This document shows, in pieces, positions 3,193 to 38,532 of a stretch of DNA of 64,000 bases. Position 1 is the first letter of the stretch, and the number at the start of each line of letters is the position of its first letter. The translations under genes and the position numbers were made by a program. Under the pieces are notes generated by a model. It made no database searches and had not been told where the DNA came from. It saw only the letters and a program-made list of their open reading frames with translations. The stretch is from a virus (taxonomy: Duplodnaviria; Caudoviricetes): positions 36,633-100,632 of the IMG/VR virus record IMGVR_UViG_3300031867_000022; one strand, given 5' to 3'.

Positions 3193-3267
3193 TGGTCGCC
3201 CCACCATCGAGTCGAACCCGGACCTGGAGGGTTAGAGCCTCCCGTGCTACCGCTACACCATGGAGCA
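3193..3267 (-). tRNA. Amber suppressor tRNA (anticodon CUA), Gln-like body
   Basis: TGCTCCA-TG-GTGT-AGCGGTA-GCAC-G-GGAGG-CTCTAAC-CCTCC-AGGT-CCGGG-TTCGACT-CGATGG-TGGGGCG-A-CCA. U1 start, encoded CCA, anticodon at 3235-3233, irregular T-stem. Confidence 0.9.
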
Positions 3268-12003: not shown

Positions 12004-12064
12004 AATACTGTCGGGATGTAGATGTCCCCTGATGAGTCGTTGCAAATTACGACGAAACAGTATT
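12004..12064 (+). ncRNA. Type III hammerhead ribozyme
   Basis: Stem III AATACTG/CAGTATT, GUC triplet (cleavage after 12012), stem I GGGAT/GTCCC, core CTGATGA, stem II GTCGT/ACGAC, core GAAA. Confidence 0.9.
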
Positions 12065-15598: not shown

Positions 15599-15758
15599 TT
15601 ATGCACGGCTGTCAGAAAACCAAACCTGTTACGTACAGGGAGCGTCATAAGGCTGCCACGCCTTATATTCGCAAAACAAAACACAGAGAAGACCTCCGTA
15701 AGGAGTATTCATAGTGAGTTACAAACATTTAGTTATTAATTTTTAACATTTATCAAAA

Positions 15759-16469: not shown

Positions 16470-16810
16470 GAACCTAGAGTCAGTGCTTTATAAAACCCAA
16501 AATGTAGATTACAGATCAATAGTCCGTCTTTACACTATCGGTACACGTTTACAGATTAATTAAATGGACGGTAGAGCACGACACTACATTTAATATAAGC
16601 AGAATTAACTGCAAGCAGTTAGAGTCTTGAGCCAACACTGTTAGGGTGATTAACACCGACCACACGGTGTAATAATATGTGGCCATTTGATCAAATAACT
16701 GCAATGTACGAGCCATTGAGTCGGTGCCACTGAGTGAGATGATATCAAAACTTAGACACTGCATTGTATATCAAGAAATGCGGGTACAACCTATTCAGAA
16801 CCTTAGAGTC
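16470..16810 (+). repeat. Cluster of four GARYC-N2/3-GARYC motifs in non-coding DNA
   Basis: GAACC-TA-GAGTC 16470; GAGTC-TT-GAGCC 16622; GAGCC-ATT-GAGTC 16710; GAACC-TTA-GAGTC 16798. Confidence 0.65.
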
Positions 16811-16998
16811 AGCAATAGATCACTGTACCAAACTAAGGCCTTAAAAAGCCTCTCTAAGCGTTTCAAATCCTTGAGTGGATTAGCTACCCATGATAGGGGG
16901 AGAAAATGCCTTAGAGAGGCTATAATACGGCTTAAATCGAATTCTGTGACTGATCATCACAGAGTTTACTAGAGTGTACAACATTAAAATCAATTTAT

Positions 16999-17177: not shown

Positions 17178-17390
17178 AATCTTAGCGTGTCCCAGGATAA
17201 GTCGTTCGGACGGCGGTTCGATTCCGCCCAGGTCCACCTATATTAATAAATATGGGCTTGACTGGTTTAGACGGCGACAGAAAGTAAGACATCAAGCGCT
17301 TTGATATAAAAATTAAACGGCAACATAAACGTTGTTGACTACACGGGTCTCCAGGAGGCAGCGTGAAGTCGGTGAACCCTACCTAAGTGG
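17178..17390 (+). ncRNA. ssrA: Circularly permuted (two-piece) tmRNA; outer ends approximate
   Basis: The 3' acceptor part comes first (GGAC-GGCGG-TTCGATT-CCGCC-CAGGTCC-A-CC, 17208-17238), then an AT spacer, then the 5' part GGGCTTG-ACTGGTTTAGAC at 17254. Pairing gives G3-U70; P2 is GGCGAC/GTCGTT; tag ORF 17319-17366 reads GNINVVDYTGLQEAA-TGA. Confidence 0.88.
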
Positions 17391-17539: not shown

Positions 17540-17708
17540 GGATCAATAGCTCAGTTGGTAGAGCAATAGAGATAAGCAAAAGATAGAGCTGTCACGGCTA
17601 CATGGCTGATATAAACCGTGTAAAAAATGTGTAAAATTGATTTGTTTCAAACTATCATGGTGATTTGTTTATCTTTATAAGTCCCCGGTTCGAGCCCGAG
17701 TTGGTCCA
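17540..17708 (+). ncRNA. tRNA-like RNA with ~113-nt extended anticodon domain
   Basis: Acceptor GGATCAA/TTGGTCC, D-arm GCTC-AGTTGGTA-GAGC, T-arm CCCGG-TTCGAGC-CCGAG. The anticodon stem is replaced by a 15-bp helix ATAGAGATAAGCAAA/TTTGTTTATCTTTAT enclosing more structure. Confidence 0.75.
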
Positions 17709-17722
17709 CAAACACATATCGA

Positions 17723-18214
17723 ATGAAAAAATCTGGATACAAGGAAATGTTGCGGGATAGATGTCCTGCAACAGTAAACTTTGCTCTTAAGTATTGCAAT
17801 GCTAAAGAGCGTTGGATTGATCATGCTTACAATCAATTTATAAAGATATATGTAGATAATAATGAACGTAAACATACTACTCGTATTATCCTCGGTATTG
17901 CAAAATATTACAGAAACTTTATATTTGATAAAAGCATCGATTGGGAGAATCTCACCAAAGAAGAAGAAGCCTATTGGAAATGGGTATCAGCTTGGGTGAG
18001 GTGGTTCATGAAGAACTTTGCGTATATAGAAAATACGTATAAGATCTCTCGCTCTTGTGGAAAAGATGAATTTGACTGTAAAGTTGAAATCATCCAGAAG
18101 CACTTAAGTTCAAAGCTTCCTACAGAAGACGATGATGAAGAAACAAAAGCAAAAAAGCTAAAAGAAGTAAATAAACTTACCGATTATCTCGTCAAATGTA
18201 TCAATGAAGTATAG
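17723..18214 (+). CDS. Hypothetical protein
   Basis: 163-aa ORF. Confidence 0.8.
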   Translation: MKKSGYKEMLRDRCPATVNFALKYCNAKERWIDHAYNQFIKIYVDNNERKHTTRIILGIAKYYRNFIFDKSIDWENLTKEEEAYWKWVSAWVRWFMKNFAYIENTYKISRSCGKDEFDCKVEIIQKHLSSKLPTEDDDEETKAKKLKEVNKLTDYLVKCINEV

Positions 18215-18780: not shown

Positions 18781-19344
18781 ATGTCCAAGAATCCTAGAAT
18801 CACTTCAGAAGAAGTTGGGATAATCAAAAGAGCGCAAGCAGGTGATGAATCTGCTTTTAATATACTTTTTCACAAATACAAAGGATTTGTTGAGAATATA
18901 CTGTTTCAGTATATCAAGGATATGGATGAAGCCAAAGATATGGCTAATTTCGTCTTCTTAAAAGTATATAATAATCTCTCAAAGTTTACAAAGTACGACT
19001 CCTTCGGGGGTTGGCTAAGAATACTGACTAATCGAGTGGCAATCGACTATTTGCGTACAATGGAGAACAAACAAGTAGCACTTGGTGATGATGTAGGCCG
19101 ACTACCTACAAATGAAACAAGTAGCTCGTATGAAGACGAAATTGTCAATCGTCTAACATATAAGCAATTGCTAAGTGAGTTCAACAAGCTTTCAGAAGAT
19201 GCTCGTAAAATCTTCGAGCTGTACTATGAGAATCGAATGACAGTTGAAGAAATCAGTAAAGCGCTTCGAATCCCAACAGGAACTATTAAGTCAACGTTGT
19301 CAAGAACGCGTAAAAAGATTCAAAAACGTTTAAAAATTAATTAA
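18781..19344 (+). CDS. ECF-family sigma-70 factor
   Basis: Region 2 (AGDESAFNILFHKY...DEAKDMANFVFLKVY...FGGWLRILTNR..ID) and region 4 (MTVEEISKALRIPTGTIKSTLSRTRKKI). Confidence 0.92.
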   Translation: MSKNPRITSEEVGIIKRAQAGDESAFNILFHKYKGFVENILFQYIKDMDEAKDMANFVFLKVYNNLSKFTKYDSFGGWLRILTNRVAIDYLRTMENKQVALGDDVGRLPTNETSSSYEDEIVNRLTYKQLLSEFNKLSEDARKIFELYYENRMTVEEISKALRIPTGTIKSTLSRTRKKIQKRLKIN

Positions 19345-21719: not shown

Positions 21720-23880
21720 TACTCCGGTGCGGGGGATAGACCAGGTCTGTCCCCCAGCCAGTTTGGCAGCACGTCAGCACGGTATAGATGGGTCTCATTA
21801 GCCCAGGTGGTGCGAAATATAATTTACTGGATCCGAGAATATGTTAGCCCTCTCAAAGGGTGAGAAACTCAAAAGGTAGGATGGAAGATCGCAAGTGTGA
21901 AAAGCTTGTGGATATTAGGGTAAGCGTTGTATCAACCCTATTCTGGTCCCTGAGAACCGTCTGGTGAGGGTAGTCAAGAGAAGACGCATAAGTCGCAAAA
22001 AGCGCAAAACGAACCGTATCGAAAGATTTAGATTTCGAGTGATACATAGATCTGAAATCACGTTACACGAGTTGAAACATTATAGTAAGCCAAAAACTAT
22101 AATGATGTATCAATTTACTTTAAGCTGTAGTCTAGTGTTCCACGCAATCCAGGGCGTGTATGAAGGGACGAACAATTACATGGAATAATATAAGCAATAT
22201 CATAAGGGTAATACTTATGAGGCGTACCGTAACTACGTCGCTTTTTCGAACCCTTGCTGTTCGATTCAGCACAGCTCCGTTGAAGGGGTAAGCCAGGGAT
22301 GAGGTATAGCTGATTGTGTTAGGAAATGTGACCGCCAGGCCTTAGTCGTTCATGCGGTATATAAAAGTAGAATGACATACTAGTCCGATGCAGGGATTAA
22401 ATGCGAAGTAGGGCCTAGAGGCTTGAAGGCTACGCGGATGAAGTGCGCGGTGAAACACTATTTCAAAAAGGGAAAGCTCGGTAAGCGGAGTATGTAAAAG
22501 AACCTAGCGTTAAGATGTACCGGAGGAAATGCCGGAGTCGAAGGATGACAACCTGACAGTCAAAACCAATTGTTTTAAAGTAGGTCGATTCAAAGCCTAT
22601 ACATTCCAGTATAGAGGAAGATCGCTTTCTTGTGCAGATAAAAGATAATATGAGATGTTACTGTTGTACTATATCAGCGAGAGTAGTAAACTCGTGTGCG
22701 GTATGACTTAACTATGGTCACTCATATGAAAATATATTGAAACGAAACAATTAGAGAGTATTAACATGTTTAACAAAATTGATGTTCCCAGCTGGTAGAA
22801 GAAATAAAGACAACTTTGTATGTATGCGCTATCACGTCTGGAGTTCGAGTGCCAACCGTTCCTGAGAAGCAAGTAGCAAGATGGGAAACTAAGCGAAGCA
22901 TAGACCGCAAATCTATGTGGGTGGATACCATGAAGCAATATACATGACAAATGAAGAAATTCAGATGCAAGGCAGCCTATCGTGAAACGAAGTATCACCT
23001 CCTTGTCTGGGAGGGGTAAAGCGACCAGGATGAACCTTATGTTTTATACATAAGTAGTAAAAATGGAAACCGAAGAAGCGAATCTTTAGGTGGGTGATAA
23101 ATCTAGATGTATGAGGTGGAATTCCTCCAGTATTCGTGCACTATAAACAATGAGGAAGTAAATCCAAGAGTAAAAACAACCGTACGTCCATGATGGGTTA
23201 TGGAGCCCTAGACAGTTCGACAACAAAAGCGTTCCTCTTCACGCAAATACCAATTAGTTATAAAGAACGAAGCCGGGTATTGATTGTTCTGACCGGAAAA
23301 AAGCATAGAACAGTGGCAGCTGTGCCTAATCAGTATCGCAAGACTGTACAACAGCAGAGTAGTTCAATCAGCTTATAGGGAAAATACGCTGAAGAATTAC
23401 GCAACTCTCATTTACGACCACAAACTGGGTTTAGTAAAACGTTCTACGAACATTAGTTGCGAAAGCAAAATTTTGCCAACGAACAAATGAAAACGCTCAG
23501 TTCATGAAAATTGAATATTAACATAGTTCCAAGTAATTTTATGTCTAATCACATAGTATCCAAGTTTGTACTTTTACTGAAGATAAAAGAATCCTCTAAT
23601 GACGGGCATGGATGATTCTACCGTTGAATCCCCGACAGATGAAACAGTGTTCGTGCTGTGTAATCTGTCTAGCTAGAGAAAACTTTATTAACAGCAAAAA
23701 CATTGCTCTCATGAGCACGCATAAAGATACAGAATAAGAAATTACCGAACACACGTTCATAGAGCCTTTGAGCCAGAACGCCACATTTCGAAACTCAAAG
23801 GTTACCCTCCCGCCAGAAGTGGAGGACATATTAATTCTTATCGTTAGTTAATCAATAACGATATCAAAAAGGATAAGAAA
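21720..23880 (+). ncRNA. Candidate very large structured non-coding RNA (~2.15 kb)
   Basis: No credible ORF (all under 100 aa) in a gene-dense genome; many hairpins, GNRA-type loops, a T-loop arm and long-range complementarities. Confidence 0.65.
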
Positions 23881-27971: not shown

Positions 27972-28061
27972 GGTATGAGCACTGGGGACAGTGTAACGTA
28001 CGGCGATACATACCGAAGAAAAGGTAATGGTCGTTGGGGAGGTCGTTTCTCCCCATACCCA
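27971..28061 (+). ncRNA. Cloverleaf-like leader upstream of DNA polymerase
   Basis: GGGTAT/ATACCC closing stem stacked on GGGGAG-GTCGTTT-CTCCCC; inner hairpins CACTG-GGGA-CAGTG and TACC/GGTA. Confidence 0.55.
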
Positions 28062-28086
28062 CTATTAATCTAAGAACCACAGAGTC

Positions 28087-29952
28087 ATGATAATAAAAGG
28101 AAGCGTAGTCAATGTATACGACATTGAAGTATTTCCTAACTGCTTCCATTGTTGCTGTAAAGACACAGAAACAGGTACATTATATAAGTTTGAAATTAGT
28201 GAGAGAGTCAACCAGTTAAAAGAGCTGGTTGACTTCTTTCATTATGACCTCGGAGATAAAATGTTCTGTGGCTACAACAATCATCACTATGATGATGTTG
28301 TCATAAACTATATGATAGATTACTACTACAAACTGGATCAACTTCCGTTTTGGAGAGTTTGCCAGTCTCTGTTCAATCTTTCACAAGCAATAGTAAATGC
28401 AGAAGATGGAGATACGGATAAGTTCAAGAAGTGGAAGTATGCACATTATTTCTACTCTATGGATTTATTGACGATGCAATTTTCAAGGAAACTTCGCGTA
28501 GGTTTGAAGACTATGCAGGTAACCATGCATTACAAAAACGTGCAAGAATATGATGGAGATTTCGATGCCTTCTTACCAAAGGATAGAATCGACGAAATGA
28601 TTGCATACAACGTAAATGACGTAGAATCTACTACAGAGTTATTAAACCGTTTGAAAGAACAAGTAGAACTACGATTGTTTATCGAAGAAGAACACGGAAT
28701 CGATTGCTTGTCGATGGATTCTGTTAAGATGGCAGAAACCTTTCTACTCGAAAAATACTCAGAGAAGTCAGGTATTCCTAAAAATGTTATAAAGGAAATG
28801 AGATCTCCAATGGATTATATTCCGTTGAAAGATGTCATACTGCCATTTATAAAATACAAAAATCCAAAGTTACAGAGCGTCTTAGAAGACATGAAGAAAC
28901 AGGTAGTGTATTCTAAGGAGCGAAAAGGCTACGAGAAGAAGTTCGTTCTCTCGAATGTGGTATATTCTGTAGGAGTGGGTGGTATTCATACTATCCACAC
29001 TCCACAAATATTCCTCCCAAACGATGATGAGGTGATTGGGCACGCAGATGTGGCGTCGATGTACCCGTCCTTGCTTATTGAATATCAATGGGGTCCTCGT
29101 CACCTGGGAAAACTCTTCTGCGACTTATTTGCAGGCTTAAAAGCTGAAAGATTAGAAGCGAAGCATACAGGTCAGACAATTAAAAACATGTTTCTAAAGA
29201 TTGTGCTCAACTCTCCTACGGGAAAGATGCAGCAAGAGGTGAGTTGGATGTACGACCCCTTTAACGTTTTTAAGATAAGAATAAACGGACAGTTGATCCT
29301 TCTTTTGCTCGTAGACAGGCTTTTAGATCTCGGATGTGAGATTATTCAGTGCAACACTGATGGAGTCGTCTACAGGGCTAAAAAGGGCCTTAAACAGGCT
29401 ATTTCAGACGCTATTAAAGAGGTAGAAACACTAACGCGTCTAAAATTCGAATCTGATGAGTATGAAGCATTCTATCAGTACGCCATCAACGACTACTTTG
29501 GTGTCTTGAAAGGCGGTAAGATAGAAGAAAAAGGTATGTTTATAACAAAGACCAAATTAGGCAAAGGATTGTCTCCAGTAGTCATTCCTAAAGCTGTTAT
29601 AGAGTACTTTGTCCACAATACGCCGGTGGCAGAAACTATTGAGAAGGATAGAGATATCCGTGACTTCTTAATGTCACAAGCAGTAGATAAGAAGTTTAAA
29701 GTTGTACATGGTGATAAACCTGTACAACGTATCAATAGATTTTACGCAAGCACAAATGGTTATTCTCTATACAAGATTGATCCAAACAGCGATAGAGAAG
29801 CAACTAATATGCTAACTAAATCGGGAGTAACAATCCTGAATAAGTTTGATGAACGTCCGATAGAAGATCGCAAGATTAACTATCGTTATTATATCAGTGA
29901 AGCCAAAAAAGTGATAGCAGACTTTACTGAACAACAGCTATCGTTATTTTAG
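28087..29952 (+). CDS. polB: DNA polymerase family B (crAss-like)
   Basis: Exonuclease YDIE/GYNN..YD; motifs DVASMYPS, KIVLNSPTGK, NTDG; C-terminal QLSLF. Confidence 0.92.
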   Translation: MIIKGSVVNVYDIEVFPNCFHCCCKDTETGTLYKFEISERVNQLKELVDFFHYDLGDKMFCGYNNHHYDDVVINYMIDYYYKLDQLPFWRVCQSLFNLSQAIVNAEDGDTDKFKKWKYAHYFYSMDLLTMQFSRKLRVGLKTMQVTMHYKNVQEYDGDFDAFLPKDRIDEMIAYNVNDVESTTELLNRLKEQVELRLFIEEEHGIDCLSMDSVKMAETFLLEKYSEKSGIPKNVIKEMRSPMDYIPLKDVILPFIKYKNPKLQSVLEDMKKQVVYSKERKGYEKKFVLSNVVYSVGVGGIHTIHTPQIFLPNDDEVIGHADVASMYPSLLIEYQWGPRHLGKLFCDLFAGLKAERLEAKHTGQTIKNMFLKIVLNSPTGKMQQEVSWMYDPFNVFKIRINGQLILLLLVDRLLDLGCEIIQCNTDGVVYRAKKGLKQAISDAIKEVETLTRLKFESDEYEAFYQYAINDYFGVLKGGKIEEKGMFITKTKLGKGLSPVVIPKAVIEYFVHNTPVAETIEKDRDIRDFLMSQAVDKKFKVVHGDKPVQRINRFYASTNGYSLYKIDPNSDREATNMLTKSGVTILNKFDERPIEDRKINYRYYISEAKKVIADFTEQQLSLF

Positions 29953-29982
29953 TAACCAACTTCGAACCAAAGAGTCAATAGT

Positions 29983-30546
29983 ATGATTATTGAAGTAAAT
30001 ACAAAGCTCTTGGACGAATTCCCGGAGCTAAATTCAAGTCAATTATTGTTCCTAAGTGTGATACTGGATAAGAATCAACCCAAGTATCAAGACGTCCGCA
30101 AAATTGTCAGTCTGATTAGCGACGATGAATTATCACACTTAGTTTCTCAAGAACTAGTAACTGCGATAGAGAGCAGTGAGTCAATTACGTATCAACCAAC
30201 AGATAAGCTTAAGCAAGCTTTGTCCAAGGAGAAAGATTATTTTGATCTATTCTACGATATGTACCCAGTGTATGTTATGCGTAAGGATGGCACAAAAAGC
30301 TATCTACGAGCTAATGTAAACAAATGTCGTCATTTCTTCAACAGTAAATGCGGAAGAAGCTCTGCAATGGCAGAACATATTATCAAGTGTCTCGATTACG
30401 AGGTGTCTAAGCGCATGCGCGAAGGAAGCTTGAGTTATATGATGACTATGTGGAATTGGTTAACGCGTTCGCAATGGGAAGCGATTGAGGAAGAAATGCA
30501 AGACAGTAAACAAACTGTAAATTCTTATGGAACAGAACTTATCTAA
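29983..30546 (+). CDS. Putative replication initiator/helicase-loader-like protein
   Basis: Between pol and helicase; FDLFYDMYP...Y...WNWL..W pattern typical of phage replisome organisers. Confidence 0.55.
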   Translation: MIIEVNTKLLDEFPELNSSQLLFLSVILDKNQPKYQDVRKIVSLISDDELSHLVSQELVTAIESSESITYQPTDKLKQALSKEKDYFDLFYDMYPVYVMRKDGTKSYLRANVNKCRHFFNSKCGRSSAMAEHIIKCLDYEVSKRMREGSLSYMMTMWNWLTRSQWEAIEEEMQDSKQTVNSYGTELI

Positions 30547-31453
30547 CATTGTACGACCTATACGAGTTGTAGCTCAAGAAGCAATCAACTATATCGAAGG
30601 ACGTAGAAGTCATAATGTTACGTCTTTAAAGACACGATGGGCGAAGTTCAATAAGCAGTGTATGGGAGGTATTGAACCTAATACCGTTTATACCATAGCT
30701 GGTATTTCAGGAACTGGTAAGAGTAGTTTTGTAAATACTATGACTACCGATTTAATTGATTTGAATCCTTCTGATGATATGATTATTCTAAACTTCTCAC
30801 TAGAGATGGTTGGATTTAGGCAAATAGGAAGAACGCTTTCCAATAAGCTGAGGAAAACGACTTCTACTTTGTATAGTTCGGAAACGGACCTGGATGATGA
30901 GACCTTCAGAAAAGTCATTTCAGTATCCAACAAGCTAAAGGAGTATCCTATCTACTTTGTAGAGAAACCTTGTACTCCTATGCAGATAGAAGAAATCATA
31001 AATAGTTTCTATAACCAGTATGTAAAAGGTACTGGTAAACATTTTATTGTAACTCTGGATCATACACTGTTGACCAAACCGATAGGTTCGCAGTTAGACA
31101 CAATAAGTGAGCTTGAACGAGTATTAATTCAAACTAAAAAATTGCCGCTCACATCTGTGATCCAGATTGCACAGATGAATAGAAATATAGAGTCATCAGA
31201 AAGAATCAACAACCCATTGGGTCATTATCCGATGAGAAGTGATTTATCGTCGTCTGACGCAATGTTTCAGGCCAGCGATTATGTAATGGTCTTGCAACGA
31301 CCAGAGATATTGAACATTCAAGAGTACGGTCCCAATCATCTACCTACACAAAATAAAGTATACATGCATATCCTGAAGAATAGAGATGCAGGAAAGCCGT
31401 GTATCCTCGAATTTGAGAACGACTTGATGTTTAACAATCTGGTTGAAAGTTAA
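30527..31453 (+). CDS. DnaB-like (SF4) replicative helicase, C-terminal domain
   Basis: AGISGTGKS, FSLEM, LDH, AQMNR, P..SDL..S..FQASDYV, KNR. Confidence 0.92.
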   Translation: MEQNLSNIVRPIRVVAQEAINYIEGRRSHNVTSLKTRWAKFNKQCMGGIEPNTVYTIAGISGTGKSSFVNTMTTDLIDLNPSDDMIILNFSLEMVGFRQIGRTLSNKLRKTTSTLYSSETDLDDETFRKVISVSNKLKEYPIYFVEKPCTPMQIEEIINSFYNQYVKGTGKHFIVTLDHTLLTKPIGSQLDTISELERVLIQTKKLPLTSVIQIAQMNRNIESSERINNPLGHYPMRSDLSSSDAMFQASDYVMVLQRPEILNIQEYGPNHLPTQNKVYMHILKNRDAGKPCILEFENDLMFNNLVES

Positions 31454-31494
31454 TGCGTCTTACGAAGTATTAACATAAAAACAGACTGAATATT

Positions 31495-31974
31495 ATGATG
31501 ACAGCAACTTTTAAGACTAATAAGACTAACAATAATAACAACAACGGTTTTACTTTTCTTCTCAACAATAAGCTTCATTATGAGCCGAATTACTCCGAGA
31601 TTTTGGATGACATTATTCTTGCTGATATAAAGAAGAAGAACAGTTATCTGTTTGATAGTAAGCCTATTAGTTTTGATTTTAGCACCCTGAAGGAGGAGAC
31701 ACCTAGTTTCCTGGATGCCATCAAGTTCCTTACCAATTACAAGAAGTGTAAGAAGATTTCAAACATTCCTTTTGCTTTTGGTAAGATGTATACGCTTAGT
31801 GACGGTACGCCGATCGTGTTCTACGACGACGAGATTCAGATTGGTTTCGATACTTATAAGTATTCTGACTTTACTGATCTGTCGTTCTTGAACGGCCTTA
31901 CCGATAACACGAAGAAGACTATTATTAATATTTATGCTGCAGCAGGCACAAAGATTAACATTAATCTTCTTTAA
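31495..31974 (+). CDS. Hypothetical protein
   Basis: 159-aa ORF. Confidence 0.75.
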   Translation: MMTATFKTNKTNNNNNNGFTFLLNNKLHYEPNYSEILDDIILADIKKKNSYLFDSKPISFDFSTLKEETPSFLDAIKFLTNYKKCKKISNIPFAFGKMYTLSDGTPIVFYDDEIQIGFDTYKYSDFTDLSFLNGLTDNTKKTIINIYAAAGTKININLL

Positions 31975-31991
31975 TAAAATAAATAGAACCT

Positions 31992-32738
31992 ATGAGTCTA
32001 ACATTACCTACATCTAAAATTCCAGCAGTTTCTACAAACCCAAGATATATGGTTTTATATGGGCTTCCAAAAGCAGGCAAGACATCTTGCGTTGCTCAGC
32101 TTGATAACAACCTAATCATAGACCTCGAAGGCGGGTCTCAGTTTATTGATGCTATGTCCATACAGGCACGTAACATTAATGAATTAGGAGAAATTGCTCA
32201 AGCCATTAGAGCTAAGAATACTGAAGTAGGGCATAATTTCTATAAACGAATCACAATAGATAATGCAACACGTCTTGAAGACATTTGTATGTCTTATGCT
32301 TGCACTCTCTATCGAAAGACGGAGCTTGGCAGGAACTGGAAAGGAGACGACGTTACTACACTTGCACATGGTGCAGGTTACAAGTATCTGAGAGACGCCG
32401 TTAAAAAGGTAATTGATATGTTCAAGGACCTTTGTGATGAGTTCATTCTTATTGGCCATGTCAAAGATAGTATCACCGATAAAGACGGCCAAGAGGTCAA
32501 CGCAAAAGAAATTGACCTCATTGGTAAGCTTGGAAGAATCATCTGTGGACTTGCAGACGCAGTCGGTTACGTATATCGAAAAGATAACGAGACTCACATC
32601 TCTTTTAAATCAGAAGGGGATGGAACGACTATGGAAGCCCGCGCGAGACATCTTGCAGGCAAGGATATTATCATTGCAAAGGGAAATGAGGACGGCACTC
32701 TGACCACTTATTGGGATAGAGTTTATTTGCCCGAATAA
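31992..32738 (+). CDS. P-loop ATPase (AAA_24/Sak4-like recombination protein)
   Basis: YGLPKAGKT, IDLEGG, IDN, LIGH, D.VGY. Confidence 0.85.
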   Translation: MSLTLPTSKIPAVSTNPRYMVLYGLPKAGKTSCVAQLDNNLIIDLEGGSQFIDAMSIQARNINELGEIAQAIRAKNTEVGHNFYKRITIDNATRLEDICMSYACTLYRKTELGRNWKGDDVTTLAHGAGYKYLRDAVKKVIDMFKDLCDEFILIGHVKDSITDKDGQEVNAKEIDLIGKLGRIICGLADAVGYVYRKDNETHISFKSEGDGTTMEARARHLAGKDIIIAKGNEDGTLTTYWDRVYLPE

Positions 32739-32775
32739 TTCAGAATCTACGAATCAGTAATTAAAGGAAGAAATT

Positions 32776-33411
32776 ATGTACAGTACAAAAACAGCAACAA
32801 CAAACAATAACGAGTTTAACAGCTCTTATATGCCTGTAGGCATTAACGAAAACATTACTTTGAAAGAAGTAAACGTAAACAAGACACCGAATGGTCGTGA
32901 CTTCTTGGAGATTATCTTCGAGAATGAACAGGGCCAGACGGCTACCATGACTGAGTGGAAGAACGAAAAGAATATGTGGATTAAGACCGATGAAGATCTT
33001 CAGAATCGTGATAATCAGCAATTCGGTCGTATTCTGCAAGTTATAGATGCAGCAATCGGTTCTCATATCGACTTTGAAGGTAGTTCGTTTGCAGAGATGA
33101 TTAACTGGGTAAAAACTCAGCTTGAACCAGCTACAAATCCCGATAACATACGTCAATGTATGCGTCTTAAGGTTGTTTATGATAAGAAGGGTTATACGAA
33201 AGTTAGCTCTCTTGGTGTTTTCGTTGAACCTATGAGTGTTGCAAAAGAAGAGTCTCAGATTAAGCTTTGGAAGAACGATCTTCTGGAGCGTCCAGTACAG
33301 GCTGACGTTGAGAAGCCTGTTGATCCGCTTGTTGAAGCAGCTAAGGAAGCTCAGCTGTTAAACACTCCGGTGACTGCAGACTCTACAGGTGCTGACGACC
33401 TGCCTTTTTAA
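32776..33411 (+). CDS. Putative single-stranded DNA-binding protein
   Basis: Follows the Sak4-like gene; acidic tail ADDLPF. Confidence 0.7.
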   Translation: MYSTKTATTNNNEFNSSYMPVGINENITLKEVNVNKTPNGRDFLEIIFENEQGQTATMTEWKNEKNMWIKTDEDLQNRDNQQFGRILQVIDAAIGSHIDFEGSSFAEMINWVKTQLEPATNPDNIRQCMRLKVVYDKKGYTKVSSLGVFVEPMSVAKEESQIKLWKNDLLERPVQADVEKPVDPLVEAAKEAQLLNTPVTADSTGADDLPF

Positions 33412-33572
33412 AGAAGCAGACAAAGGATTTATTGTTTCAAGTAGAAGATGTCTTGAAGATGTTGCATAGCAAACATCCAGACCTTTATACTAAAGTGACA
33501 AAGAATTTGTCTGCATAACGGTCAGTGGTGGAGGACTGGAGGCTGCATAAGCAGCAGCCAGCCCCTAACAAT

Positions 33573-33728
33573 ATGGCAAAGTATAAAGACTATAAAGTAG
33601 AAGTTGTTTTTAAACATTTACCGTGGACAGTTAAGGATTATACAATAAAAGCAAAATCCGAAAAGAAAGCTTGTGATATTACAAGAAGAATGTTTAAAGA
33701 TAAAATACTTACCTTGCGTGTATTATGA
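33573..33728 (+). CDS. Small hypothetical protein (MAKYKD start)
   Basis: Internal ATG of ORF 33525-33728. Confidence 0.5.
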   Translation: MAKYKDYKVEVVFKHLPWTVKDYTIKAKSEKKACDITRRMFKDKILTLRVL

Positions 33729-33877
33729 CAAAAGAAGAGAAAAGACAAAGAGAAAAAGAACGCTATCACGACTGGTATTGGAATCGTGGTGGTAGAGAAA
33801 AAAGACACGCAAGATTGCGTGAAGTTGGTCCTTATAAATGGGGAACAGCAAGAGACATACCTTCTAAGGTCTACTAA
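33725..33877 (+). CDS. Small basic protein (50 aa)
   Basis: MTKEEKRQREKERYHDWYWNRGG...-TAA; ATGA overlap. Confidence 0.5.
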   Translation: MTKEEKRQREKERYHDWYWNRGGREKRHARLREVGPYKWGTARDIPSKVY

Positions 33878-33912
33878 GGTAGTTCAGCCGGGTTCGAATC
33901 CCGACTAGACCA
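33868..33912 (+). ncRNA. Anticodon-less tRNA-like element upstream of primase
   Basis: GGTCTA/TAGACC stem, GCCGGG-TTCGAAT-CCCGAC T-arm, then A-CAA. Confidence 0.6.
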
Positions 33913-33935
33913 CAATACAAAAGAGCCCATGAGCC

Positions 33936-34913
33936 ATGTATAGTACAAAAACAGCTATTACAATGAGTCTAAGAGACTTGTTGGACAAACTGGATGATTA
34001 TACTATCTATTCTTACTATCTGGGTAGTTTTAAACCAAAGACACTTATGAATAGTCCATTGAGACCAGACGATAAAATCCCCAGCTTCGCTATATTTCCT
34101 AGCAAAACTGGAGATTTGTTGTTTAAGGATCATGGTACTGGAGAAGCAGGCAATGCTCTCAAATTTATTAAGTTATATAGAGGTATTACTACCAGAGAAG
34201 AACTTGAACGAGAACTGCTGAGGATTGTTAAGCAATCTGGAGGAAAAACCAGCAGTGCGGCAACTGTGACGCATACGTATACTACCAGTGAGTATACTGA
34301 TATCGGGATAGTTCGACAACCATTTACAGAAGTTGACAAGAAATATTGGAAACAATTTCATATATCGATTGACACGTTGAAGAAATTCAATGTGTTTAGC
34401 ATTAAATACTTTCTTTGTAATAGAGTCGTCAGAGGAACCTACAAAGAAGATAGTCCTATGTATGCCTATAAGGTTTATGATCGATTTAAGATTTATAGAC
34501 CTTTAGCCTCCAAGTATACTAAATGGCGTACCAATCTGACAAATAGGCACGTTCAGGGACTAGCCGAGTTGCCTCAGGAGGGAGGCGATCTCCTCATCAT
34601 AACAAAATCCTTAAAGGATGTGATGTGTCTTTATGAGATGGGATTTAATGCTATAGCAGCTTCTAGTGAGACTACATTCATACCGGAAGATATATTGCAG
34701 TCTTTACGAAGTAAATGGAAGCATATTGTTATATTATATGATAGAGACGCTGCAGGAATGCAGAATGCTCGTAAGTATAGTAGACAGTATAAATTTGATG
34801 CTATATTCGTCCATAAAAAGTTTAAAGCGAAGGACGTATCTGACGCTGTTAAGTTAAATTCGTTCTTCGAAGTAAAAGAATGGTTAACTAAAACAGTAGA
34901 AAGATATGATTAA
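33936..34913 (+). CDS. DNA primase (Toprim, crAss-like)
   Basis: SPLR.D..PSF, FKDHG.G; Toprim IITKSLKDVM, LYDRD.AG, KDVSD. Confidence 0.88.
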   Translation: MYSTKTAITMSLRDLLDKLDDYTIYSYYLGSFKPKTLMNSPLRPDDKIPSFAIFPSKTGDLLFKDHGTGEAGNALKFIKLYRGITTREELERELLRIVKQSGGKTSSAATVTHTYTTSEYTDIGIVRQPFTEVDKKYWKQFHISIDTLKKFNVFSIKYFLCNRVVRGTYKEDSPMYAYKVYDRFKIYRPLASKYTKWRTNLTNRHVQGLAELPQEGGDLLIITKSLKDVMCLYEMGFNAIAASSETTFIPEDILQSLRSKWKHIVILYDRDAAGMQNARKYSRQYKFDAIFVHKKFKAKDVSDAVKLNSFFEVKEWLTKTVERYD

Positions 34914-35027
34914 CTTTATATTTGCGGTTCTCGGTGTCATTGGAGCCTATTTGATAGGCTACGTTAATGGTATGGCAAGAGAACAAAAGAAAAATACTAC
35001 GTACATCCATTTTAAAGGAGGTCGTAA

Positions 35028-35417
35028 GTGAAGACTAAAGGTAGGGTTAAGAATGCGACAGCAGTCGATGCGTATGGACTACATTTCCGTAGTAAACTCG
35101 AACTCTATACGTATGAAGCTTTTATGAAAGCTGGAATACCAGTTAAATATGAGCCAAAGCATTTTACCTTACTTCCAAAGTTTGAGTACCTTGGAGAGAA
35201 AATACGACCTATCACATACCTCCCTGACTTCATAGGGAGAGGTTTTGTGGTAGAGTGTAAAGGTCTTATGGGAGACTCGTTTCCCTTAAGATTTAAACTC
35301 TTCAAGTATTATCTCAAGAAGCATCGATCTAAGTATAAGTGCTATTTAGTACGAAATCACAAACAGGTTGATGAGATGATTGAGGACATTATTAAGAACC
35401 AAAAGAGTCAAAAGTAA
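35028..35417 (+). CDS. PD-(D/E)XK endonuclease (resolvase-like; T7 endo I/DUF1064 type)
   Basis: FRSKLE, YEP..F.L, YLPDF, VECKG. Confidence 0.8.
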   Translation: MKTKGRVKNATAVDAYGLHFRSKLELYTYEAFMKAGIPVKYEPKHFTLLPKFEYLGEKIRPITYLPDFIGRGFVVECKGLMGDSFPLRFKLFKYYLKKHRSKYKCYLVRNHKQVDEMIEDIIKNQKSQK

Positions 35418-36205
35418 TGGAAAACAAAAACTTTTTGAAAGTAGGAGAGAAAGTAGTATTCAAGCCTAAGACAGAAGGACTTGACTATGATATGGAAAGC
35501 GGCAAGGTGTATACTGTACAGATAGATCATTATACAGATGAGATATCGTTTAATGTAGCACCTGATATCACGCTTCCAGAAAAGCTTTACACTACTGCTG
35601 AAGATGATAAGTTTGTCACTAAAGTAATTGATCGTTATACTACTATTGTTGAAGGTACAGTAGGCGTTATGCTTTCTGGTCTGAAAGGTAGTGGTAAGAC
35701 GATTATGATGAAACGATTGGCACTTGAGTCTAAGCTTCCAATTCTGTTAATCGATAAGGGTTTTAGCCCTCGTGATTTGGTAACGTTATTCAATAAGCTT
35801 GCTGATACTGAAATCTGTATACTTATGGATGAGATTGACAAGCTTGGCGACCGTTATGAAGATGACTACCTGCTTAAAGTGTTAGATGGCATCAACTCTT
35901 CAGGTAAGAAGTTGATGATTTTCACATGTAACGATGATGAAAACATTAATGAATATCTGAAGGATCGTTGTTCTCGTATACGCTATTGGCGTAATTATGG
36001 GGAAATGTCTGCTTCTATGATTCAGGTTGTGCTTGAAGATAAGCTTGAAGATAAAGCCGAAGTTAAACCTCTTACTGACTTTATACAGGAGAAGTTTGGG
36101 TGTATTAGCTTTGACAATATCGCTTCATTCGCAGATGAAGTTAATGCTTATCCGAATGACACATATGAGGATTTGTTTAACGACATGAATCTTTCAAACA
36201 AATGA
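35417..36205 (+). CDS. AAA+ ATPase
   Basis: GLKGSGKT, ILMDEIDK, LDG, FTCN, RCSRIRY. Confidence 0.88.
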   Translation: MENKNFLKVGEKVVFKPKTEGLDYDMESGKVYTVQIDHYTDEISFNVAPDITLPEKLYTTAEDDKFVTKVIDRYTTIVEGTVGVMLSGLKGSGKTIMMKRLALESKLPILLIDKGFSPRDLVTLFNKLADTEICILMDEIDKLGDRYEDDYLLKVLDGINSSGKKLMIFTCNDDENINEYLKDRCSRIRYWRNYGEMSASMIQVVLEDKLEDKAEVKPLTDFIQEKFGCISFDNIASFADEVNAYPNDTYEDLFNDMNLSNK

Positions 36206-36453
36206 GTCTAGAAGAAGCTAATCATCGTGTAAGGATGAGTATCGAATATACTCCAGCAGGATGGGGATGGTATATCAATACGTTGCAGCCATATGGCACA
36301 ATAGTAGGATATACTAAATTCCCTACTCCAAATGAAGCATTAGAGGAACTAAAAGGGTTCTTAAGATACTTTACGTTTAACGTACTGAAGAATGGAGATA
36401 CTATACGAGCTTTTATAGCTAAGCACGACCCTAATAAGAAGGAAGAAAAATGA
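36202..36453 (+). CDS. Hypothetical protein
   Basis: 83-aa ORF, ATGA overlap. Confidence 0.65.
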   Translation: MSLEEANHRVRMSIEYTPAGWGWYINTLQPYGTIVGYTKFPTPNEALEELKGFLRYFTFNVLKNGDTIRAFIAKHDPNKKEEK

Positions 36454-36463
36454 TACACAAGAT

Positions 36464-36491
36464 TGCAACCTAAGTTGTGTATTTTACGTTA
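36464..36491 (+). promoter_or_regulatory. ECF-sigma-type promoter before HNH gene
   Basis: TGCAAC-N16-ACGTTA, 7 nt before the ATG. Confidence 0.65.
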
Positions 36492-36498
36492 ATCATAT

Positions 36499-37050
36499 AT
36501 GGAAGAAATATGGAAGGACATAAATGGTTATGAAGGATTCTATCAAGTAAGCAATCTTGGAAGAGTTCGATCTGTAGATAGATGGGTTAATGGTAATCAT
36601 ATCAATTGTGATTTTCAGTTTATGAAAGGAAAAATTCGTAAATTAAGAAAAAACAAATATGGTTATTGGACGGTATTATTAAGAAAAAATTGTACATCAA
36701 AAGGCTTTTTAGTACATAGACTTGTTGCTGAATCTTTTATACCAAACCCAGATAATCTACCTTGCGTAAATCACAAAGACGAAAATCCCGCTAATCCTGT
36801 TGTAGATAACTTAGAATGGTGCACAAACGCCTATAATACTAATTATAGTAATGTAGGAGAACGTATTGCAAAATTTAGGTTTCGGAGAGTAATTCAGTTT
36901 GATAAAAATATGAATGAAATTAAACGGTGGGATAGTTTGAAAGAAGCTGCAAAATCTATTAATAGAGCACAACAGAATATTTCTAGATGTTGTAGAGGGA
37001 AATCAGCAACTTGTGGTGGATATAAATGGAAGTACGAAGATGAATATTGA
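36499..37050 (+). mobile_element. Free-standing NUMOD4-HNH-NUMOD1 homing endonuclease
   Basis: EIWKDI.GYEG.YQVSNLGRVRS; VHRLVA..F; VNHKDEN..N...NLEW; SLKEAA...ISRCC.G....GGYKW. Confidence 0.92.
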
Positions 37051-38056
37051 TACTCCTTACTACGAAGATCACGAACGCGTGAGTAATTCGTCTATAGGAT
37101 GGTTCTTAAAAGGAGGGCCATCCTATTTTTATAAGATGTGGAAAGGTGAGATTGCTGGAGAAGAAACTCCACAATTAAAAAGAGGAACCATGATACATTC
37201 TTATATACTAACGCCTGAAGAGTTCCAGAAAACATATGTAGTATGGGACAAAAGTAGACCTACTTCTGCACAACAGGAGAAGTTCTGTCAGGAGTTAGCT
37301 AACACAGTAGAAATAGAGCCAAATAGAGCCATTCTAAGCGCCTATAAAGAGGCGTATAGTACAGCAGGAAAGTCAGAAGATAAAATGCTGTCAGAAGGCC
37401 TTAAAATAGCCTCTACGTTGAAGGATTACATAGACTTCCTGAAAGAGAATGATGGAAGGATTATGATTAGTCCTTGGGATGCCCAAATGCTTGAGAAAAT
37501 CAAGACAAACATATATGATCATAAACTTGCACCGCATATAGTATGGCCACATAAGTATATGGCAGACTATAAAAATGGATCTGCAACTATTGCAGACTCA
37601 GATGTTGCGTATCATGAATTTCATATAAATTGGGGTTATGAGAACAAGATACAGTGTAAATCATTGCTGGATGGCCTTACTCTTGACTTTAAGAATAAGA
37701 AAGCTATTATATACGACTTAAAGACTACACAAAAGTTGTGGCACTTTGAGGATAGTATGAATCAGTATGATTACCTAAGACAGTTAGCGTATTACACAAT
37801 GGCTGTACGATGGTATCTTGTTAACGAATGCGGAGAAGATCCATATGCTTGGAGTTTTGAGTACTATATTATTGGTATAGATACTACCAGTAGTAATGAG
37901 ATTCGTGTCTTTAAAATTGAACACGAACAAGTGCAATCTAGATACGATACTATACTCGATGCTCTGGATGCTATAGCTTGGCATCAACGTGAGAATAAGT
38001 GGGATCACAGTAGAGAATATTATGAAGGCAACGGCTCGGAGTCATTGAACCTATGA
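37040..38056 (+). CDS. PD-(D/E)XK exonuclease (DUF3799/RecE-like)
   Basis: VSNSSI, GTMIH, CKSLLD, YDLKTT, Y.RQLAYY. Confidence 0.85.
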   Translation: MNIDTPYYEDHERVSNSSIGWFLKGGPSYFYKMWKGEIAGEETPQLKRGTMIHSYILTPEEFQKTYVVWDKSRPTSAQQEKFCQELANTVEIEPNRAILSAYKEAYSTAGKSEDKMLSEGLKIASTLKDYIDFLKENDGRIMISPWDAQMLEKIKTNIYDHKLAPHIVWPHKYMADYKNGSATIADSDVAYHEFHINWGYENKIQCKSLLDGLTLDFKNKKAIIYDLKTTQKLWHFEDSMNQYDYLRQLAYYTMAVRWYLVNECGEDPYAWSFEYYIIGIDTTSSNEIRVFKIEHEQVQSRYDTILDALDAIAWHQRENKWDHSREYYEGNGSESLNL

Positions 38057-38532
38057 GCAATTTAATGAAGCTAGCAATACCACTACTTCATCCAGATATT
38101 ACAAAAAAGGATATAGATGAATGTAGTGGTTTTGTAGAAGCTTATTTTGAAGATAAAAATAAACCATATCTCACAAATCATTTATTTTTAATGTATGATG
38201 TCGAAAGTAAACAACCGAATGTTGCAAATTGTTTTTATAAGTTGCAGCGTTTAAACAATCGATATGGTACACGTATAGTTAGTATTAAAGGAAAGCAATA
38301 TATAGTATATTACTTTACTATTGATAAAACTATACGAAATCTAAGGGACGGTAATATAATACTGTCTGTAGCTCAAAAGCAGCGAATCTTAGATTTTTGG
38401 GGGCATAGTGATGCGTGGGTAACAAACAACGTACTTCTTGGAACAATGTACGAACATCCTGAACCTTTGGTGCTTCCTGAAGAGGACTGGGCACCAGAGG
38501 AAGATGGATACGAAGAAGGGGAAGCATTCTAA
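38053..38532 (+). CDS. Hypothetical protein, last gene of replication module
   Basis: 159-aa ORF ending in the terminator hairpin. Confidence 0.8.
   Translation: MSNLMKLAIPLLHPDITKKDIDECSGFVEAYFEDKNKPYLTNHLFLMYDVESKQPNVANCFYKLQRLNNRYGTRIVSIKGKQYIVYYFTIDKTIRNLRDGNIILSVAQKQRILDFWGHSDAWVTNNVLLGTMYEHPEPLVLPEEDWAPEEDGYEEGEAF

Follow-up and report, generated by a model that had tools for sequence, protein, structure and literature searches.

The stretch of DNA analyzed here (hereafter the window, 64,000 nucleotides (nt) in length) comprises bases 36633–100632 of the virus record IMGVR_UViG_3300031867_000022, which is 100,632 bp long, complete and has direct terminal repeats. It belongs to a gut crAss-like phage that is Suoliviridae-like, with a replication module that shares 66–73% DNA identity with the Suoliviridae/Oafivirinae crAss-like phages cr272_1, cr131_1, cr124_1 and Bohxovirus. 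Genes are on the + strand from approximately 5.5 to 38.5 kb and on the − strand elsewhere in the window. Within the + strand block a short motif, GARYCNNNGARYC (GARYC-N3-GARYC), recurs at the starts of replication genes, and a first-pass annotation had read it as a set of operators for a phage translational repressor with RegA/CsrA-like logic, potentially with a decoy RNA. Here we describe evidence that the element is a covarying mini stem-loop, carried both at gene starts and by a conserved non-coding RNA (ncRNA), and we weigh what may read it.

The window contains ten strict matches to the motif, every one of them on the + strand and within 16.7–38.1 kb (starting at 16710, 16798, 18789, 23762, 28074, 29964, 31986, 32743, 33923 and 38039), while dinucleotide shuffles give 1.31 ± 1.19 over both strands and none of 100 shuffles reaches ten. 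Two variants with a 2-nt spacer (N2, at 16470 and 16622), one with a 4-nt spacer (N4, at 35396) and a third overlapping unit at 38047 are also on the + strand, and among the spacers of 0 to 15 nt tested in the window a spacer of 3 alone is enriched. All of the sites listed in the first-pass annotation are real and lie where it placed them, its claim that they are on the sense strand holds (the antisense strand has none, so the motif is not equally common there), and the excess over chance is as it described, with ten strict sites where it counted nine. The site it missed is the one at 18789. The minus-strand (late) gene blocks of the window carry no motif on their sense strand, and none is seen in the first 10 kb of the + strand block, where the earliest genes lie (6–16 kb). 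A site with a 5-nt spacer at 37316 (GAGCC-AAATA-GAGCC) is present in every genome, those of the GT class described below included, and was set aside as a coding constraint.

At seven of the window sites the ATG of a long open reading frame (ORF) or replication gene is contained in the motif or follows its end by 0–20 nt, and most sites lie across a replication-gene ATG or 0–8 nt upstream of one, which agrees with the start-codon association originally proposed. The site at 28074..28086 (+, GAACC-ACA-GAGTC) is followed at once by the ATG of the DNA polymerase gene (pol, +), a label that has the RefSeq annotation of relatives behind it, while a Pfam search of the putative polymerase gene gave no match. 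The next, at 29964..29976 (+, GAACC-AAA-GAGTC), is 6 nt upstream of the ATG of gene 29983 (+), which is annotated as replisome-organizer-like in one relative, and the loop of the site at 31986..31998 (+, GAACC-TAT-GAGTC) contains the ATG of a gene for an AAA_24 (RecA-like) protein (+), supported by a family match. Gene 32776 (32776–33411, +) has its ATG 20 nt past the site at 32743..32755 (+, GAATC-TAC-GAATC); it had been labeled a single-stranded DNA-binding protein (SSB), a label that can be kept only as putative, as Pfam and PHROG searches of the product gave no match and its family is unassigned. The primase and AAA ATPase labels are both supported by family matches. The ATG of the Toprim primase gene (33936, +) comes immediately after the site at 33923..33935 (+, GAGCC-CAT-GAGCC), whose flanks (AUACA/UGUAU) are able to pair with each other, so that the AUG is sequestered. 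The N4 variant at 35396..35409 (+, GAACC-AAAA-GAGTC) precedes the ATG of the AAA ATPase gene (+) by 7 nt; this variant is within the end of the upstream ORF and has a lower stem that takes in the AUG.

The last site, 38039..38059 (+, GAGTC-ATT-GAACC-TAT-GAGCA), spans the overlap between the stop of the PDDEXK exonuclease gene (+) and the start of gene 38053. The exonuclease C-terminus reads GSESLNL in the window and GSETLNL in motif-less relatives, the peptide being nearly constant in relatives, and the codons that spell the motif are used in motif-bearing genomes only. As judged from these codons, the 38039 motif is made by synonymous codon choice. The site missed earlier, 18789..18801 (+, GAATC-CTA-GAATC), is 8 nt past the ATG of an ECF sigma factor gene (18781–19344, +), and the equivalent position of cr124_1 reads GTATC-AGC-GTATC despite different amino acids. 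The gene set first proposed holds for the replication genes but was incomplete, since the ECF sigma gene is part of it as well.

The two half-sites covary in a way that a direct repeat would not. Their central dinucleotides are reverse-complementary (AC/GT, GT/AC, AT/AT or GC/GC) in 134 of 143 distinct N3 sites, a count that none of 10,000 shuffles comes near, and the mutual information is 0.81 bits between positions 4 and 11 and 0.71 bits between positions 3 and 12, with no other pair above 0.44. All four dinucleotide combinations are seen at the orthologous pol site, which means that the changes are compensatory. Seven of the nine exceptions are G·U on the sense strand, several of them at clearly orthologous sites, and the remaining two are A·C and look like chance matches within coding sequence. 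The consensus is A-GA-RY-C-WWW-GA-R'Y'-C-A with an A/T-rich spacer of 2 to 5 nt, in which G1, A2, C5, G9, A10 and C13 are invariant, presumably as the bases contacted by the putative reader. The covariation indicates that the element is a 13-nt mini stem-loop with R3–Y12 and Y4–R11 paired, and a pair of direct half-sites does not describe it. Minimum-energy folds of single sites often show G1–C13, an unpaired A2, the pairs 3–12 and 4–11 and a loop of six bases. Apart from the mini-hairpin, which is in the minimum-energy fold of several sites, the gene-start regions show little structure. Compensatory changes that keep the pairing, with G·U tolerated on one strand only, are a generic feature of structured RNA, and the sites are co-oriented with all flanking genes. 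The stem-loop thus most likely acts in RNA and not in single-stranded DNA.

Four copies at 16470–16810 fall within an ORF-free stretch that is conserved in six complete genomes, and their spacing of about 85–150 nt is array-like. Copies 1 (16470..16481, +, GAACC-TA-GAGTC) and 2 (16622..16633, +, GAGTC-TT-GAGCC, with one U·G wobble in its stem) are the N2 variants, and copy 2 aligns with copies in five other genomes. Copy 3 (16710..16722, +, GAGCC-ATT-GAGTC), with a G·U wobble at 3–12, is at the apex of a 4-bp lower stem, and copy 4 (16798..16810, +, GAACC-TTA-GAGTC) caps a long stem that has covariation behind it. Copies 2–4 belong to a conserved structured ncRNA region (16600..16960, +) seen by alignment and RNAalifold on six genomes; the predicted fold has 53 pairs, 24 of which show compensatory changes, and many G·U, and it puts the motif copies on stem tips with the pairs 3–12 and 4–11 formed unprompted. 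No Rfam family matches this region. Just downstream is a permuted (two-piece) transfer-messenger RNA (tmRNA; 17187–17366, +; Rfam RF04321, 71 bits), and a tmRNA is annotated in cr131_1 and cr124_1. The position of the copies on covarying stem tips argues against promoters and double-stranded iterons there.

One further copy, at 23762..23774 (+, GAGCC-TTT-GAGCC), has beneath it a lower stem of GUUC/GAAC and falls within the leader region, approximately 120 nt upstream of gene 23884, and orthologous sites are present in genomes G005–G008 and in cr124_1. This copy is near the 3′ end of a second ORF-free stretch of approximately 2.1 kb (21720–23880, +), which keeps 67–76% DNA identity over approximately 1.5 kb in all six compared genomes. 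A recoded gene was rejected, the stretch being still ORF-free when TAG is read as Q or TGA as W; a large RNA and an origin are possible identities.

The strand bias and the placement of the motif are conserved in relatives. In a sample of 84 related loci (1.16 Mb, pol identity 60–88%), the sense strand carries 176 copies of the motif and the antisense strand 6, and the five complete relatives give 46 sense versus 1 antisense, with a reversed-pattern control at about 1 per strand. The relatives yield 156 distinct N3 sites, and 86 of these precede the first ATG of an ORF that is 60 aa or longer, with gaps to the ATG of 0 nt in 35 sites, 1 nt in 14 and then 2–8 nt; in nine sites the ATG is within the motif. 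The genes that turn up repeatedly as targets are pol, gene 29983, the AAA_24 gene, gene 32776 and the last gene, 38053. A scan of IMG/VR for AGAACCNNNGAGTCATG returned at least 114 stretches in which this clade is mixed with apparent chance matches, and it is uninformative. When the 461-aa protein served as a second anchor in the search for related loci, it yielded no relatives.

The gene-start motif is absent in some close relatives, and the form of the element differs from genome to genome. Genome G002 has no gene-start sites, yet it carries three GAGCCTTTGAGCC copies in the ncRNA, and in G004, also with no gene-start sites, GTGCC-TT-GTGCC stands three times in the ncRNA, at the orthologous positions. 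In G005 the form GAGCC-N4/5-GAGCC is found in four ncRNA copies, at the 23762-type site and at three gene starts. Eight sites of GT type (GTATC) are present in cr124_1, eight on the sense and none on the antisense strand, of which four are in the ncRNA, one is just past the sigma ATG, one is of the 23762 type, one is directly before the AAA_24 ATG, and the eighth is within the AAA_24 coding sequence and may be due to chance. At locus L070 the pol start reads GTATC-TTA-GTATC-ATG. When complementary-type sites that have A2 and A10 are counted over all 84 loci, the sense strand has 260 and the antisense strand 7. Comparison of these site sets indicates that whole genomes switch class in concert, between GA/N3, GAGCC/N4-5 and GT (cr124_1). 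The fact that the same two invariant bases, or the loop length, are changed set-wide points to one co-evolving trans-acting reader, and a conserved host factor is unlikely in this role. The fact that G002 and G004 keep ncRNA copies without mRNA copies means that the ncRNA is probably the primary binding partner. The decoy RNA suggested earlier is matched by a multi-site ncRNA, which looks like more than a mere decoy.

The transcription context of these genes is also relevant. Many + strand genes, in relatives too, have (T)AGTATTAAY 16–22 nt upstream of the ATG (TATTAAY examples at 15734, 19768, 26516, 28063 and 31468, all +), usually with a TTATCAAAA leader next, and TATTAAY may be an early or middle promoter element in this group of phages. 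The sequence before pol runs TATTAAT, CTAA, motif and ATG, and since the motif is downstream of TATTAAT it probably occupies the leader. Just upstream of the pol and primase sites are tRNA-like T-arm and acceptor remnants (28030–28055 and 33880–33912, +), at positions where relatives have intact tRNA genes; ARAGORN and Rfam make no tRNA call for these remnants. In the crAss-like phage phi14:2 the replication genes are early and are transcribed by the virion RNA polymerase, which works on single-stranded DNA without a known promoter motif, and the early (replication) transcripts have no common upstream motif (bioRxiv 10.1101/2020.03.07.982082).

We give about an even chance to the reading in which the hairpin is a translational-repressor operator for a putative phage RNA-binding protein, with the ncRNA as its main platform or sponge. 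One phage-encoded protein would recognize the hairpin, finding strong pre-folded sites in the 3–4 copies on stem tips of the conserved ncRNA beside the phage tmRNA and weak sites in the ribosome footprint of the replication genes and the ECF sigma gene. Binding at the gene-start sites would block initiation, and the ratio of reader to ncRNA would set replisome and sigma synthesis. The site positions range from 20 nt upstream of the AUG, through sites across the AUG, to approximately 20 nt downstream of it (sigma gene), and all are within the footprint of the 30S subunit, so occlusion fits better than activation from a fixed upstream place. The RNA-level features (sense strand, gene starts and ncRNA) fit the operators that the first-pass annotation proposed; that the reader is a phage protein and that its effect is repression is inferred. 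Somewhat more tentatively, and at a little under even odds, the phage protein and the structured ncRNA may form a particle through the 3–4 identical mini-hairpins, as a self-contained RNA–protein circuit of Suoliviridae-like crAss phages, such that the weaker start-codon hairpins couple replisome and late sigma synthesis to the state of this particle. The specificity of the circuit would then have changed repeatedly and in concert over the whole regulon, with A replaced by U at two positions and the loop lengthened from 3 to 5.

Several observations weigh against a repressor of this kind. The retention of ncRNA copies without gene-start sites in G002 and G004 implies a role of the ncRNA beyond titration, a hairpin of 2–4 bp is unstable by itself, and the argument from sense-strand G·U comprises seven sites only. 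No gene is confined to motif-bearing genomes, either within ±10 kb of pol in 32 loci or in seven whole genomes, and no residue among 17 core families convincingly tracks the A/T class, the matches being one sigma-factor column and one gap column, which is within chance. A six-frame search of the 100.6-kb genome for CsrA (PF02599) gave no match at E ≤ 0.1 where control genomes matched, although it covered the phage genome and a host could carry a copy; the RegA profile (Translat_reg, PF01818) had no match in the phage genome, nor in control genomes. None of these searches brought out a binding protein. AlphaFold models of two of the core proteins, A2 and A3 (predicted local distance difference test, pLDDT, about 65), have no Foldseek match in the PDB.

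Other candidates were tried as well. Profile searches of the three faster-diverging core proteins (A2, A3 and A4) against PDB sequences gave nothing meaningful, and the ORF at 17723–18214 was rejected as the reader because motif-less genomes carry it as well. Pairing with a trans RNA was rejected since the window has no antisense copy of the motif and several pair types coexist per genome. A general downstream complement of the motif core was likewise rejected, being present at the 23762-type site only.

The sense-strand, RNA-structure and start-codon evidence would fit equally well if the hairpin were the recognition signal of a sequence- and structure-specific endoribonuclease. Under T4 RegB or Cas6 logic, a polycistronic early transcript would be cut at gene starts, with the mRNAs activated or inactivated, and an ncRNA precursor would be cut into units, as the array-like spacing of the ncRNA copies might suggest. 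The tRNA or tRNA-like 3′ ends just upstream of the pol and primase sites also imply that these transcripts are processed anyway. We nevertheless regard cleavage as rather unlikely, because cutting at the ncRNA stem apices would destroy structures that the covariation shows to be maintained, no nuclease candidate was found, and sites whose position varies from −20 to +20 relative to the AUG are more in keeping with occlusion than with a maturation cut at a defined place. Improbable, in our judgment, is a signal that acts in cis on initiation and is recognized by the host ribosome or by a host protein such as S1, which would be a lineage-specific replacement for A-rich Bacteroidota leaders without a dedicated phage reader. 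The motif does occupy the place of the TTATCAAAA leader in other phage genes, and its presence correlates with no phage gene, but the concerted genome-wide switches of A2/A10 to T and of spacer 3 to 5 would hardly be expected if the reader were a conserved host factor. Such a signal also gives no reason for the 3–4 ncRNA copies, and it sits poorly with the sigma gene site downstream of the AUG and with the close relatives that manage without the motif.

Explanations at the DNA level fare worse. A transcription signal, either an antitermination site or a promoter or initiator of the virion RNA polymerase (perhaps one extruded as a hairpin of single-stranded DNA, like those of N4), would yield near-leaderless mRNAs and drive the ncRNAs, and we think it slightly more improbable still than a host-read signal. 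It is attractive in that the virion RNA polymerase of phi14:2 makes early replication transcripts on single-stranded DNA from promoters whose motif is not known, and in that ncRNA copies without gene-start copies, as in G002, are what independent promoters could leave. N4 promoters are small hairpins with 3-nt loops, which the element resembles, yet the template-strand hairpin upstream of early transcription starts that marks this promoter type is not seen among the sequence features here. The earliest + strand genes (6–16 kb) lack the motif, the pol motif comes 4 nt past a TATTAAY that is common to many genes and would amount to a second stacked promoter, and sites are found inside RNA stems of the structured ncRNA and downstream of the sigma ATG. 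The G·U exceptions favor the sense and not the template strand, and the spacer varies from 2 to 5. A promoter for the ECF sigma factor (GAAC ... GTC) was rejected, given that its parts are just 3 nt apart and that the central positions covary as base pairs. A double-stranded DNA site, namely origin iterons at 16.4–17.0 kb bound by an initiator that also autoregulates the replication genes, seems very improbable. Clustered same-orientation repeats in an ORF-free stretch do look iteron-like and the targets are replication genes, but recognition of the duplex leaves unexplained the Watson-Crick and G·U covariation at 3–12 and 4–11, the covariation-supported stems around the copies and the placement a few nt from the ATG instead of at promoters.

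The operator reading invites comparison with known regulators. It is like CsrA/RsmA with CsrB/RsmZ, in which a short motif displayed in hairpin loops is repeated in an ncRNA and also overlaps the ribosome-binding regions of targets; the phage has copies on ncRNA stem tips as well as copies overlapping target initiation regions, and regulation from the protein:RNA ratio is proposed here too. The phage motif (GA-RY-C-N-GA-RY-C), however, has no GGA core, it has its own 2-bp covarying stem with invariant flanks, it is phage-encoded with replisome targets, and its ncRNA persists where mRNA sites are absent. The proposed circuit resembles T4 RegA in acting at the initiation regions of several early/replication genes, and the autogenous operator of T4 gp43 in placing a small hairpin beside the pol start. 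RegA sites are A/U-rich and unstructured, whereas the phage element is sharply defined, with covarying pairs and G/C-containing invariant positions, and we know of no ncRNA partner in T4. In MS2 and PP7 a small hairpin with an unpaired A on or abutting the start of the replication gene is bound by the coat protein, which represses translation, but there is one operator per genome with a stem of 7–8 bp, compared with approximately 10–15 sites per genome and a stem of 2–4 bp in the crAss-like phage.

The iron-responsive element is a pseudo-triloop hexaloop (loop CAGUGN) in the 5′ leader, and here the C-NNN-G-A loop can likewise form a C5–G9 cross-loop pair that leaves a triloop and one unpaired A, with a further unpaired base on the 5′ strand and a 5′ leader position at which a bound factor would prevent initiation. 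Its stem is much shorter than that of the iron-responsive element, the loop is not CAGUGN, spacers of 2–5 nt are tolerated, and the cross-loop pair is invariant and hence unproven. The start-associated sequence (SAS) of cluster K mycobacteriophages is a 13-nt asymmetric sequence, conserved across relatives, that lies in one orientation 3–7 bp before 11–19 non-structural gene starts (PMC3203893). The phage element is similarly a 13-nt motif in one orientation a few nt before non-structural gene starts, but SAS is GGGATAGGAGCCC with a Shine-Dalgarno core, which the phage consensus does not contain, and SAS is without internal covariation and is not reported in ncRNA, its hosts and phage lineages being unrelated. 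Because the defining sequence or protein features of these systems are absent, the element is not a member of Csr, RegA, gp43, MS2 or SAS.

Other features of the window are given here as observations in their own right. The replication module also contains a DnaB-like helicase, supported by family matches, and a DUF1064 nuclease gene, and it is interrupted by an inserted HNH/NUMOD homing endonuclease (I-HmuI-like; 36499–37050, +) that is absent from 6 of 6 compared genomes. Gene 32776 and the primase gene (33936) share the opening ATGTATAGTACA (MYST), also in relatives. Within gene 32776, GAACCTATGAGTG at 33226–33238 (+) is one mismatch from the motif, and an in-frame ATG at this place would yield a 59-aa C-terminal product. 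A tRNA with anticodon CTA (amber suppressor; 3193–3267, −), which ARAGORN labels tRNA-Pyl, belongs to the minus-strand block and hints that late genes are TAG-recoded, as they are in other crAss-like phages. A match to the type III hammerhead ribozyme (12005–12063, +; RF00008, 49.8 bits versus a cut-off of 48.5) falls among the small early genes, and a tRNA match spanning 169 nt (17540–17708, +) has normal D and T arms but, around the anticodon, an insertion of approximately 90–100 nt.

Literature searches returned no account of such an element in crAss-like phages. No viruses are more abundant in the human and animal gut than these phages, and to our knowledge almost nothing is known of their post-transcriptional gene regulation. 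The element offers a testable handle on it, consisting of a 13-nt covarying hairpin, a partner ncRNA and natural specificity variants that serve as built-in controls, with a target set of polymerase, helicase-loader-like, AAA_24, primase, ATPase and sigma genes. If the operator reading is true, the system would be a phage-borne analogue of the combination of a sponge RNA with a translational repressor, and it would give a function to one conserved non-coding RNA of Crassvirales.

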